Shown: piece by piece, positions 46,552 through 50,355 of the stretch | How positions within the stretch are numbered: position 1 is the stretch's first letter | Layout of the letters: every line of letters begins with the position of its first letter | Assembly (NCBI GenBank): GCA_965218795.1 | Contig: OZ244653.1 | Location: 2,944,001 to 3,008,000, forward strand | Reading direction: 5' to 3' | Length of the DNA: 64,000 nucleotides | From: a bacterium | Lineage (GTDB): Bacteria; UBA8248; JACPRG01; G963555815 | The notes under the pieces: generated by a model | What the model saw: only the letters and a program-made list of their open reading frames with translations | What the model was told of the DNA's origin: nothing | Database searches by the model: none | Made by a program: the position numbers and the translations under genes

Positions 46552-48590
46552 CTATGGCTTTTTCCCTTTGGGCATCAGTTTTGGAAATGTCACCTCGCTG
46601 CCCACGGTCACCTTGGACCGAAACAGATCAGGATTATATCGGGCCACGACCCAATATGGAACTTCATACTTATGGTGAGCGAGTTCCCAGAGGCTCTCAC
46701 CCTTTTGGATGGTGTGGTGGAAGGTTCCAATCACCCTGTACCGCTCATGAAAATCATCTTCCAGACTTTTATGATATTCCAATCGCCTGTTTTCAAATTC
46801 TTCCCGGGTTGCGCGGCGGAAGCTCAGTAAGAGTTTCTGACCCATCCGAATGGCCCGCCCCGGGCGCAGTCTGTTGAGACGCCGTAGGACCCTTGGGCTT
46901 GTTTTCAGCCATTCGGCGAAATGACCCAGGGTTTCCTCCGCTTCCACCCGCGTCCACCCCCGTCCGGGCGATCGGCCCGTCACCCGAACCGAGGGCAACT
47001 TCTTCCACTCCGGCCATTCTACATCTTTTGACTCCGCCGTCTTCTTCCCTTCGGAGAAAGGCTTTGAAACGGCGGGAGGACTCTTGGCAGCGGATTCGGA
47101 CGATTTGGGTTCGACAGGTTTCCCCCCCGGCCCAGCGGCCCAGGCGGTCGCCAATTGGATACCGGGTGCTTTCTTCGCCGTACCGGCGCCCTTGAGGGTT
47201 TCCTCCGATTTCCGCAGGCGCGGGGTTTTTGATACAGGGGAAGGTCGGGTCGTGACGCTCTTTACCCCGGGGATAGACAGAATTTTCCCAGCGCGAATCC
47301 GGGAGATATTTCTCACATCGTTCACTGCGGCCAGCGCCCGGACCGTTGTCTTGAATCGCCGTGCGATCAACCCCAACGAATCGCCTCGTCTCACGCGGTA
47401 CCAGCGGATCCGCTTTTGATCGCTTCGTTTCAACTTTGCGGGCAAAGAAGCATAGCGCTGTCGCAGGCGGCTCAATCGGCCGGCGGGTACTCGAAGCAAG
47501 TACCCCTTGGGGATATGCCGTTCCCCCCTTAACACCGGTACACGGAGTCCTGGATTATAGTTTTTCAGTTCTTGAAAGGTCAGGAGGTCTCGACCTGTTA
47601 TTGCCTCCGCGGATACATACGCCGGCATTCGGAAGGTTTCATAGCGTCGCGGTCTCTGCTTTTGAATGGGTCCGAAGTGACGTCGGGCTCTTTTTGACAC
47701 CCTTCGCGCCGCGAGAAATTCTGCGTAGAAATTCCTGGATGCAAACCCGAAGGTTCGCCCACTGTATTTCCTGATGATGGTGGGAAGATGCTTCGTGCCC
47801 ACCTGGCGGACTGCGCGCGCCATTCCCGCACGGCCGTGATTGTAAGCCGTAACCGCAAGCGGCCAGCTCCCCAGTTCCTGATAATTCTGTCGGAGAAGCT
47901 TAGCGGCCGCGTGCGTGGCCTTTATCGGGTCTCGGCGCTCATCCACGTCATAGTTGATCTTCATGAACAAGCGGCCCGTGGAGCGCGTAAACTGCCAGAC
48001 GCCGACCGCACCGAGGCGGGAGTATGCTCGGTAATTGAAGGAAGATTCCACGTGGGGAAGGTAGGCAATATCCGCCGGAAGGCCGTGCTTCTTAAAAATC
48101 CTTCTCATCTCCTGGATGTAGAGTCCTGACCAGGCGATCCCCTGGGGCGAAACTTTTCGCGCAATCCCTGCTGGGCTCGCACATTTCGGGCAGCCCGTCG
48201 AAATGACCGTCTTTTCCGTCGGAGTTCCCTGTAGATTCTCTGTTGCTTCCGGGGAAGCTTTTCGATGTTCGGTGTCTTCTTGGACCATCGGAGGAGAAGA
48301 GCCGCGTAGCGGGTTCGGGCGCGTTTTGCATTCCTCCACCTTATTTTTTCGCCTCTCCGGCCGGACCCTTCACTCAGGTCAACCACGTCATAGACGAGAC
48401 TTAGATGCTCCGCGTCGTGGATGACCGCTTGGCTTCGGCTGTATTTCGTGAAGATGCCGACCCAGAATTCGACAGCGTCTTCCAGCCCCTTGGGGACAGG
48501 AAACGGGTCCTTCGCCGATGCCGTCCCTATCCAAAAAAGAAACAATAAGGATGCCAGGGCAATTCGTGATTTCCACGATCCGATTTGCAT
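46552..48590 (-). CDS. LysM-containing lytic transglycosylase (MltD-like), frameshifted near 48150
   Basis: Signal peptide; HVESSF, GVWQF, AYNHG; three LysM-like repeats; frame break in CCCC/GGGG runs. Confidence 0.85.
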
Positions 48591-48796
48591 GGCGATGGGT
48601 TTCCTGCCGGGCGGGTTGTCTCGGCAAGGGGCCGACTTGAGTGAACTGAAAATTCGGTTGCCAAATGTGCTATAAGGGAAAATAAGGTAACAAATCACAT
48701 GCCAAAGCGTCAAGAGAGTTTATAAGTTTATTAATAAAATCCATTGTTTTCAAACCTCCAAGATGAATCGATTTTGTCTTCAGCCAATTTTCTCTC

Positions 48797-48826
48797 TTGA
48801 CATTGGGTCGGCTCAGACCGTAATGT
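48797..48826 (+). promoter_or_regulatory. sigma70-like promoter
   Basis: TTGACA-18-TAATGT upstream of the sORF. Confidence 0.5.
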
Positions 48827-48855
48827 GAAATCAACGCGGGAAAGGAGGTGATCGA

Positions 48856-48900
48856 TTGAAAAAGTCTTCATGTAGCGATCGCGAGGTGGCCGAGGTCTGA
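48856..48900 (+). CDS. 14-aa small ORF MKKSSCSDREVAEV
   Basis: TTG start just after AAAGGAGGTGATC (full anti-SD complement); TGA at 48898-48900. Confidence 0.55.
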   Translation: MKKSSCSDREVAEV

Positions 48901-48958
48901 CGACCTAACCCGGTGTTAGCCGGGCAGGCGCCCAGGCTAATCTAAGTCGGCACCACCG

Positions 48959-49012
48959 AAAAATCCCCGGGCGGTATGGCCTATGAGACCTTTCGCCGGG
49001 GGATTTTTTTTG
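48959..49012 (+). terminator. long intrinsic terminator
   Basis: AAAAATCCCCGG...CCGGGGGATTTTTTTT. Confidence 0.75.
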
Positions 49013-49015
49013 TGC

Positions 49016-49050
49016 TTGACTTTCGTTCTCATTTCGAAAAAAATACGTTC
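49016..49050 (+). promoter_or_regulatory. lexA promoter with candidate LexA operator
   Basis: TTGACT followed by TTCG-N7-TTCG (11-bp period). Confidence 0.4.
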
Positions 49051-49136
49051 AATCATTGAAATCAAATTTCCCTACAATCCGGAAGGTCGCATCACAAAGG
49101 GATTCAACGAAAAGAGGCAAAAAGAAGGAGTAAACG

Positions 49137-49739
49137 ATGTACCTCACAAAACGGCAGCGACAGATATTGGATTTCATTAAAGAGTTCATCGAAGAGAAGG
49201 GTTATTCCCCGAGTCTGGAGGAGATCGGGGCGGGGTTCGGTTTGACCTCTCCAGCAACAGTTCATAAGCACGTGATGAATCTGATTGATAAAGGCCTCCT
49301 AAGACGAGGCTGGAACCGGAGTCGGTCGATCGAGGTGCTGGAGGGGAGAAATCCCGAGCCCGTCAAGGAACTGCCATTGCTGGGATATATCGCAGCGGGA
49401 AGCCCGCTGGAGGCGGTTCTCGATCAGACCACCATTGCGCTTCCCTGGACCGAAGCCGGAGCACGTAGGCTCTATGTCCTTCAAGTCAAAGGACAGTCCA
49501 TGATCGAGGATCATATTGAAGACGGCGATTATGTCATTGTGGAGGAACGACAAACCGCCAATAACGGAGAAACGGTTGTCGCCCTGCTTCGCGATAACGA
49601 GGCGACCCTAAAGCGTTTTTACCGCGAAAACAGCCACATTCGCCTCCAGCCGGCAAACCGGGAGATGGAGCCCATCCTCGTGAGTGAGAGCGAACTGCGG
49701 ATTCAGGGAATCGTGGTTGGAATTCTCCGAAAATACTGA
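49137..49739 (+). CDS. lexA: SOS repressor LexA
   Basis: LTKRQ..ILDFI, YSPSLEEI, IAAG cleavage site, GQSM, ATLKRF. Confidence 0.96.
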   Translation: MYLTKRQRQILDFIKEFIEEKGYSPSLEEIGAGFGLTSPATVHKHVMNLIDKGLLRRGWNRSRSIEVLEGRNPEPVKELPLLGYIAAGSPLEAVLDQTTIALPWTEAGARRLYVLQVKGQSMIEDHIEDGDYVIVEERQTANNGETVVALLRDNEATLKRFYRENSHIRLQPANREMEPILVSESELRIQGIVVGILRKY

Positions 49740-49744
49740 AAAAC

Positions 49745-50355
49745 TTACCTCCGGTCCTCCGCAATACTGTGGGTAATGAAAAGGACCGTCTTCCGGGTCT
49801 TCTGCCAGATCCGCAAGAGCTCCAGATTCATTTCATCCCGGGTGATGGCGTCCAGCGCGCCGAACGGCTCATCCATCAACAACAGAGGCGGGTCATGGAT
49901 TAATGCCCGCGTGATTGAAGCTCGCTGTTGTATCCTCCCTGAAAGTTCACCGGGATACTTGTCCTCGAACCCGTTGAGGCCAACGAGATTGAGAAGCTCC
50001 ATCGCCCGGTCCCGATAATCCGAGACGTTCATCTTACGGGCCTCAATCTGCAACAGCACATTATCGAGGGTCTTTCGCCATTCCAGCAACACGGGCGATT
50101 GGAAGACGATCCCCACATTGGTCAACGGACCACGAACCGGGGCTCTCCCGAAACGTCCACGGTCCCTTCCGTCGGTGACAGCAATCCGGCGGTCAGCTTC
50201 AGCAGGGTGGTCTTCCCGCAGCCGCTCCGGCCTACAACCGTGAGGAACTCACCGTCTCCGACGTTCAGGTCAACCTCTTCCAGGGCGATGACCTCCCGAT
50301 CCGCTCCCGGATTGTAGACCTTTCGAAGACCCCGGTATTCGATGACGTTCGCCAA
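49745..50355 (-). pseudogene. TauB/SsuB-type ABC ATPase, frameshifted and 3'-truncated
   Basis: GRSGCGKTT in ORF 50122-50424; LSGRIQQR/DEPFGALD in ORF 49745-50125; ends soon after the H-loop. Confidence 0.8.

Follow-up and report, generated by a model that had tools for sequence, protein, structure and literature searches.

Does the short interval upstream of lexA in a bacterium of the Genome Taxonomy Database lineage UBA8248; JACPRG01; G963555815 hold a leader of that gene, a very small protein gene, a non-coding RNA, or an RNA whose function depends on being translated? The question arose from a stretch of 64,000 nucleotides (nt) of its genome, hereafter the window (GenBank assembly GCA_965218795.1, contig OZ244653.1, positions 2,944,001 to 3,008,000 of the forward strand; coordinates below count from its first letter, and the parts described for the interval upstream of lexA lie on the plus strand). 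An earlier interpretation of the letters alone (the sequence-only reading) had noticed a promoter, a strong Shine-Dalgarno sequence (SD), a 14-codon open reading frame (ORF) starting with TTG, hairpins and a terminator, about 180 nt in all, and by direct reading we found every one of these parts at 48797-49012. We read this element as a gene in its own right, bounded by a promoter and a terminator that belong to it, and its predicted product is a structured RNA, about 180 nt long, that doubles as a mini-mRNA. Probably, in our view, the RNA engages ribosomes, and translation of its own mini-ORF unzips its fold.

A predicted self-contained transcription unit

The promoter is composed of a -35 box TTGACA (48797-48802), which is the same in all five genomes of the bacterial family in which the element occurs and stands amid diverging neighbours, and a -10 box TAATGT (48821-48826), of which TAA is kept in the same five genomes (the versions being TAATGT, TAAGTA, TAAGTT and TAAGCT). 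In the sister genera TTGACT or TTGACA is found at an equal distance as the equivalent of the -35 box. From the position of these boxes transcription would start near A48833/A48834. The unit ends with an intrinsic terminator (48959-49011), for which the computed fold gives a long bulged stem, AAAAAUCCCCGG...CCGGGGGAUUUUU, followed by a run of eight T residues; the stem ends and the T-run are unchanged in 5/5 family genomes. A scan with consensus promoter and terminator models flagged neither signal of the element, and both were accepted on the strength of their conservation in the five genomes, where the flanks diverge. Compared with shuffled sequences the whole RNA has a more stable fold (z = -2.75), and the element is present as a single copy in its genome. 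The identity of a transfer RNA (tRNA) or transfer-messenger RNA was discarded, as ARAGORN found neither within 48000-50000.

BLAST detected the element in four of the six other genomes of the bacterial family with 78-92% identity, the two genomes without a match being 2.1 Mb each. In the alignment of these sequences the segment from ACGCGGG through the T-run is nearly invariant, and the promoter spacer and both flanks diverge. A close relative, represented in a DNA sequencing run (X18), differs by three substitutions in 180 nt, all at unpaired positions (48944, 48951 in the bulge of helix P2, and 48984); the 134 nt upstream of the promoter (48653-48786) are replaced there by 132 unrelated letters, and lexA is retained, carrying many changes. 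The SD, the ORF and the structure that the sequence-only reading had singled out are all kept in relatives, and covariation was found.

The Shine-Dalgarno sequence

The SD, GAAAGGAGGTGATC (48840-48853), is complementary over 14 nt to the 3' tail of the 16S ribosomal RNA (rRNA) of the same genome, which ends in ...GGATCACCTCCTTTCT (read in antisense at locus L153). The complementarity claimed from the letters alone is real, but its length, previously put at 13 nt, is one nucleotide greater when measured against the genome's own 16S end. The window has one copy of the 12-mer AAGGAGGTGATC, which is not significant alone, with 0.46 chance matches expected in the window if one mismatch is allowed. 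The 5.17-Mb genome has five copies, one of which is the 16S gene itself and three of which have no start codon 3-13 nt downstream; the element is therefore the only genomic site where this 12-mer serves as a ribosome-binding site, and its SD is the strongest such site in the genome, the sequence-only reading having seen none stronger in the window. GGNGGTG with a preceding A/G-rich lead is present in every family member examined, and in the comparative fold the SD sits in an unpaired stretch after the 5' strand of helix P1a.

A second SD-like sequence, GAGGTG (48883-48888), lies inside the ORF, ends 9 nt before the stop codon and is invariant. AGGTG is likewise invariant in MAFFT alignments, for which the search pattern had partly selected that motif. 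As the first four pairs of helix P2 (AGGUG with CACC) never vary and those of P1a freely do, the AGGUG stretch appears to be conserved as a sequence and not merely as one side of a helix.

A mini-ORF with a fixed stop

The mini-ORF (48856-48900) was read directly from the sequence: a TTG start at 48856, 7 nt after GGAGG, is followed by 13 codons, making 14 sense codons in all, and by a TGA stop (48898-48900), and the peptide encoded is MKKSSCSDREVAEV. A tally over 62 distinct sequences drawn from all groups placed the stop codon at a constant 15 nt past the G of GAGGUG in every case (62/62), with TAG used in 30, TGA in 23 and TAA in nine, and TGG in none. The distance from the SD to this GAG ranges over 15 different values from 31 to 48 nt, with every residue modulo 3 represented, and the start codon shifts with it, preserving the frame and giving ORF lengths of 12-17 codons. 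A canonical start is found 7-13 nt past GGAGG in 50 of the 62 sequences, in all of them in frame with the fixed stop; the same interval contains one more canonical start, which does not share that frame (50/51 in frame). Judged from these comparisons, the mini-ORF is under selection, and the proposal of an unannotated peptide ORF is supported, the start, the frame and the position of the stop being conserved across phyla.

What is conserved seems, however, to be translation rather than the peptide sequence. Identity of peptides across phyla is limited to E-V-[AT], the residues that the invariant GAGGUGR encodes, and a weak match in Planctomycetota keeps the start, the length and the stop but uses another frame relative to GAGGUG, which favours the act of translation over the sequence produced. 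The second half of the ORF is made up of the 3' strand of P1a and the 5' strands of helices P2 and P3, with the stop inside P3, so that a ribosome translating the ORF would have to open the whole fold. An 8-nt palindrome, GCGATCGC (48875-48882), spans the 3' strands of P1b and P1a.

These observations bear directly on the possibility that the peptide is the product, i.e. that the locus is a very small protein gene with a fold that merely tunes its translation or stability. Besides the conserved start, frame and stop, this explanation can draw on the likeness of the peptides within Nitrospinota (MK..C[RS]DEV[AT].. in the sister family, compared with MKKSSCSDREVAEV here) and on synonymous changes within the family (AAA/AAG, AGC/AGT and GAG/GAA). 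However, the E-V-[AT] shared across phyla is encoded by the very GAGGUGR that forms P2, codons of the type 'xGG ACx' coincide with the GGAC pairing strand, the N-terminal halves are unrelated between phyla, the same RNA is read in a different frame in the weak Planctomycetota match, and the peptides, 12-17 residues long, are short, hydrophilic and without recognisable motif. We therefore regard a protein gene proper as unlikely, and the translated, ribosome-engaging RNA remains the reading that we prefer.

Secondary structure and covariation

Three helices account for most of the conserved fold. P1a closes the 5' domain and pairs CGCG (48835-48838) with CGCG (48880-48883); it is 99.4% paired across 44 sequences, three of its four pairs change on both sides, and in a plain MAFFT alignment its two inner pairs are formed in 31/31 sequences by five or six pair types. 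P2 is formed by GGUGG-CCGA (48885-48893) and UCGG-(CA bulge)-CCACC (48947-48957), is 92.6% paired and has two pairs that change on both sides (UA 25 / CG 18 and GC 28 / AU 9). P3 joins GGUCUG (48894-48899), in which the stop codon's first two bases lie, with CAGGCU (48933-48938), and is 81.6% paired across the 44 sequences with four of six pairs changing on both sides. Between the 3' strands of P3 and P2 lies an unpaired junction, AAUCUAAG (48939-48946; GAAUCCnn in relatives), a conserved aligned block that reads GAAUCC, GACUCC or UAAUCU and in every group directly precedes the 3' strand of P2. A pairing of this GAAUCC with the SD, sought by eye, was dropped, as it amounted to no more than 3-4 base pairs (bp) in registers that differ between clades.

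When the 44 sequences were aligned to the covariance model R1 (described below), 88.0% of cells were paired, compared with 31-42% when the partners were slid; cells changed on both sides numbered 106, involving ten pairs, as against 6-16, and the covariation score was 0.308 as against 0.03-0.07, a value reached by 0/500 shuffles. Covariation thus supports helices P1a, P2 and P3.

Two further helices are more local. P1b pairs AUCG (48851-48854) with CGAU (48876-48879) to form a weakly supported hairpin, the loop of which contains the start codon, and shows one compensatory change within the family (GAUCG/CGAUC vs GAUCA/UGAUC). P4, CCCGG-UGUUAG-CCGGG (48909-48924), is a variable apical domain, kept in 5/5 family genomes with C-to-U changes that yield G-U pairs, and of differing length and sequence in other phyla; it stands as the sequence-only reading had drawn it. 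The other two hairpins of that reading also exist as written, but the comparative fold assigns their strands otherwise: AGGTC-TGAC-GACCT, around the stop codon, is not kept outside the family and its 5' arm belongs to P3, and the TCGG (48947-48950) of the hairpin TCGG/CCGA pairs with CCGA at 48890-48893 in P2.

In Actinomycetota the fold is extended by a pseudoknot in which NGGAC, directly 5' of the second strand of P1a, pairs with GUCCN, part of the loop of a hairpin that follows P2; this 5-bp match is perfect in 36/39 sequences and covaries (A/U, G/C, C/G and U/A). This pseudoknot (loci L086-L115 and the Acidimicrobiia loci) competes with the SD-adjacent GGUCC. A pseudoknot of the actinobacterial type was not found among 20 Nitrospinota sequences (0/15 and 1/5, in inconsistent places), and where Actinomycetota have it the window element has the local hairpin of 48851-48854 with 48876-48879. 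Acidobacteriota differ in another manner: their members (L025-L074) lack P1a in its usual register, and in 14/20 sequences a 5' CRCUGR has its match in YCAGYG, which occupies a hairpin loop 37-42 nt beyond the 5' strand of P2, with compensatory changes (TCGCTG/CAGCGA, CACTGG/CCAGTG and CGCTGA/TCAGTG). This pairing suggests that the 5' closing helix is rewired there, and on such comparisons the Acidobacteriota hold a rewired form of the RNA family.

A fold of this kind could also belong to a purely non-coding sRNA (small RNA), in which the G-rich stretch and the helices would pair with a target or bind a protein, for example as a decoy for the 16S tail or for C-rich targets, with the ORF left untranslated. 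The strong covariation of P1a, P2 and P3 speaks for it, as do the 10/62 sequences with only CTG or ATA at the start position, the frequent pairing of the SD in predicted ensembles and, as far as the consulted portions of the literature go, the description of the actinobacterial relative as an sRNA. What such an sRNA would leave hard to explain without translation is the conservation of the stop and the frame: three different stop codons occupy the same place in all 62 sequences and TGG never does, though a G-C pair would fit the helix, and 50/51 canonical starts are in frame across ORFs of 12-17 codons. An untranslated RNA thus seems to us a rather poor prospect. The proposal of a ribosome-binding sRNA, made from the letters alone, is nevertheless supported, as the fold covaries, and an RNA both folded and translated is what we favour.

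Relation to the Rfam family Ms_IGR-5 and wider distribution

At gathering thresholds no Rfam family was found anywhere in the window. Below the threshold, the element matched RF02471 (Ms_IGR-5) over its full length with 18.3 bits (E 0.19 over 2 kb), compared with a gathering score of 45; genome-wide, two other places reached approx. 16 bits, and the window element was not among the two best candidates. Five relatives scored 21.7-29.1 bits, also sub-threshold, and in two genomes of Acidimicrobiia the element was the best genome-wide match to RF02471 (E 2e-4 and 4e-3). Among 151 sampled Actinomycetota, RF02471 detected 50 genomes at E <= 0.01, all but one with a single match, and the scores ran continuously from 185 to 22 bits, with 19/151 over the threshold. 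In bona fide actinobacterial members the parts follow the order seen in the window.

A pattern scan (the SD 12-mer followed 20-45 nt on by AGGTGGCCGA; one genome per species) returned 57 loci, of which ten were unrelated, mostly coding, and 47 shared the design: four in Nitrospinota (the relatives of the window), 14 of the Acidimicrobiia type, 28 in Acidobacteriota and one in Planctomycetota. Model R1, for which we combined our own structure with 31 sequences (from Nitrospinota, Acidimicrobiia and other Actinomycetota), gave one match each in 43/51 genomes of Nitrospinota and matches in 73/151 of the sampled Actinomycetota (the tallies of 50 with RF02471 and 73 with R1 include four and six unpublished genomes, respectively, which enter into nothing else claimed here). 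Scoring of 25 candidates per genome, which leaves absence unproven, gave one weak match in 121 genomes of Planctomycetota and none in 121 of Chloroflexota. A 29-bit match of R1 in genome G206 was set aside, as it looks like coding sequence.

For a non-circular test, model R2 was made only from 28 Actinomycetota sequences retrieved with RF02471. With R2 the window element, at 48.9 bits and E 9.2e-10, was the only match that its genome gave, and one match each was obtained in 26/31 genomes of Nitrospinota. Judged by these scores, the element and the Ms_IGR-5 sRNAs of actinobacteria are distantly related, the element being of a Nitrospinota type. The sequence-only reading had left room for a match to a described Rfam family; there is such a relative, a family without a described function, but the element scores below its 45-bit threshold.

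The likeness extends to a short closing helix, the sequence GRAAGGAGGUGRUC, a start codon, an ORF of 12-14 codons ending in E-V-[AT]-x-x-stop, P2 and P3 with the GAAUCC junction, a 3' hairpin or terminator after them, and one copy per genome. The differences are that the window element lies below the gathering score, that the host, judged by its relatives, belongs to Nitrospinota, that the actinobacterial pseudoknot was not found in Nitrospinota, and that the descriptions of the mycobacterial sRNA, in the portions consulted, mention no ORF or link to ribosomes. In the available part of a 2021 preprint, IGR-5 of Mycobacterium smegmatis, located between MSMEG_5794 and MSMEG_5795, is a validated, uncharacterised sRNA capped with nicotinamide adenine dinucleotide; according to the available part of a 2023 paper it was detected again as ncMSMEG15794c, and M. 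smegmatis is the only species for which these sources report expression. In the literature searched, parts of which were available, MSMEG_5795 turned up only in work on Rv0812, and neither a functional study of the IGR-5 RNA nor a report of an ORF was found, the 2013 original description and the supplements lying outside this search.

Some further observations concern individual lineages. In Acidimicrobiia, tRNA-Sec genes were found approx. 1.1 kb from the element at two loci (L033 320-410 and L035 2739-2829; 76.6 and 78.9 bits). In 15 genomes of the sister genus BLAST reported 29-nt matches (L011 1501-1529 and 14 further loci) that are 90-93% identical to window 48874-48902; these were rejected as the element, as they lie inside a 410-residue ORF reading ..SEREVAEVW.., and the likeness is due to the same codons, R-E-V-A-E-V, in an ordinary protein gene. 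The true orthologues in that genus were located with model R1.

Genomic context and lexA

On the opposite strand upstream, the neighbours of the element are an SLT/LysM gene and dnaN. Downstream, lexA (Peptidase_S24 and LexA_DNA_bind) starts at 49137 and follows the RNA in 5/5 members of the family. Ahead of lexA and past the terminator, a consensus scan flagged a promoter-like site (49016-49044), the -35 of which begins 5 nt past the T-run. Elsewhere the downstream genes are others: in the sister family ytoQ was found in 3/3 loci tested with Pfam, and the N-terminus of a ytoQ ORF in 9/15 loci; other sister Nitrospinota have a glyoxalase-family gene or unassigned ORFs; in Bryobacterales and other Acidobacteriota tsaD follows in 9/9 tested loci; and in Acidimicrobiia a GNAT or Yip1 gene or an unassigned ORF is found. 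As the downstream genes differ among clades, the adjacency to lexA is local synteny and not function, and from this arrangement the element is not a lexA leader.

The lexA promoter region carries a block, CTTGACTTTCGT-N5-TTTCG (repeat at 49021-49036), that is conserved in 5/5 family genomes and forms a direct repeat, TTTCG-N6-TTTCG, with an 11-nt period, possibly the operator that LexA uses in this clade. We counted 24 copies of the repeat across the genome, compared with 15 for a reversed control, which is no clear enrichment; several copies read TTTCG[AT]TTGACTTTCG.

Proposed mechanism and its limits

The working of the ribosome-engaging RNA that we favour can be pictured as follows. The very long, 14-nt SD pairing would capture the 30S subunit tightly, and each round of translation would unzip P1a, P2 and P3, freeing the conserved 3' half of the RNA, i.e. 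the junction AAUCUAAG and the CCACC strand. The second GAGGUG, 9 nt before the stop, would lie where it could pair with the anti-SD of a ribosome at termination and so hold that ribosome; this GAGGUG ends 6 nt before the last sense codon, the usual SD/anti-SD spacing, and would thus suit a ribosome with that codon in the P-site. The freed 3' half might then act on something else, or refold onto the first SD. The act of translating, not the peptide, would be what matters.

Several observations weigh against this reading or against parts of it. Twelve of the 62 sequences have no canonical start at 3-13 nt (nine have CTG, one ATA, and two ATG at 14 nt); the CTG and ATA codons are in frame at the usual start spot, and some lineages may translate the ORF weakly or do without its translation. 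When 61 sequences were folded with a partition function, the SD core did not come out as preferentially unpaired: in the predicted ensembles the mean unpaired probability was 0.35 for GGAGG and 0.37 for the whole RNA, and GGAGG was more open than average in only 26/61 sequences. P1b is 78.6% paired and shows no real covariation at the scale of the 44 sequences. It should also be noted that the alignment used for these counts (A8) was fitted to the model structure, so that its figures lean toward the fold, and that the sequences are related, so that the counts overstate independent events. The invariance of the motifs is in part a product of selection, since the pattern fixed the SD 12-mer and AGGTGGCCGA for most members outside Actinomycetota. 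An RNA sequencing run (X20), which contained 9% of the sampled words, gave a single contig, located on the 3' end of lexA (49578-49750) and thus off the element; a second possible RNA run (X24) gave no contig. Finally, it is conjecture that the second GAGGUG holds the ribosome and that the 3' half, once freed, has a role.

Even with these points counted, the peptide-only, RNA-only and lexA-attenuator explanations all stand well below an RNA that engages ribosomes. The last of these, in which translation of the mini-ORF would be coupled to the downstream gene (here lexA and thereby SOS expression, as the sequence-only reading had suggested), can point to lexA as the next gene in 5/5 family genomes, with its -35 box 5 nt past the T-run, and to the SD and ATG of the next gene close behind the last hairpin in Acidimicrobiia, but is very improbable given downstream genes that vary between genera and phyla, a strong and conserved terminator, a conserved TTGACTTTCG block in a distinct promoter-like site ahead of lexA, the lack of a regulatory codon run and, in the consulted portions of the literature, the report of the M. 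smegmatis relative as a discrete, validated sRNA.

Comparison with known systems

The ribosome-engaging RNA proposed here shares features with two established classes. Dual-function sRNAs, such as SgrS/SgrT, SR1/SR1P and RNAIII/hld, encode peptides of 26-43 residues with activities of their own, and their RNAs have known base-pairing targets. As in those systems, one short transcript combines a conserved RNA structure and a conserved ORF that are both under selection; in contrast to them, the ORF overlaps the structural strands almost wholly and the peptide, of 12-17 residues, is poorly conserved. Leader-peptide attenuators of the trpL, hisL and pheL type have a short ORF with a good ribosome-binding site, the translation of which melts downstream helices, and an intrinsic terminator. 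The element resembles these in its short, well-initiated ORF running across helices ahead of an intrinsic terminator, but has no runs of regulatory codons and no conserved downstream gene, and lexA has a promoter-like site of its own. Inspection by eye for an antiterminator revealed no consistent candidate, the GC-rich CCGGG repeats permitting many pairings. A type I toxin or SOS-induced toxic peptide of the tisB/istR type was also considered and rejected, as such systems have a hydrophobic peptide of about 20-60 residues and an antisense RNA, the 14-residue MKKSSCSDREVAEV is hydrophilic, and no antisense unit was seen.

Significance

The findings describe one single-copy RNA gene of unusual design, present in most of the sampled Nitrospinota and about half of the sampled Actinomycetota, in which the longest SD of the genome is combined with a mini-ORF fused to the RNA's own structural helices and with a fixed stop. 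The sole described member of the family is an uncharacterised mycobacterial sRNA, and the present Rfam model misses most of the family (19/151 genomes over threshold, compared with 73/151 with the wider model R1). The conserved, translated mini-ORF and the extreme SD make the element a good candidate for a translation-linked RNA and, possibly, a translation sensor. A bolder version, which we hold to be a long shot, is that the RNA is a ribosome gauge or decoy common to Actinomycetota, Nitrospinota and Acidobacteriota, working by SD capture, unzipping and the hold on the terminating ribosome. If this were true, the fraction of the RNA that is folded or translated would report or buffer free ribosome capacity, and such a gauge could bear on the balance between SD-led and leaderless translation, or on the entry into hibernation.

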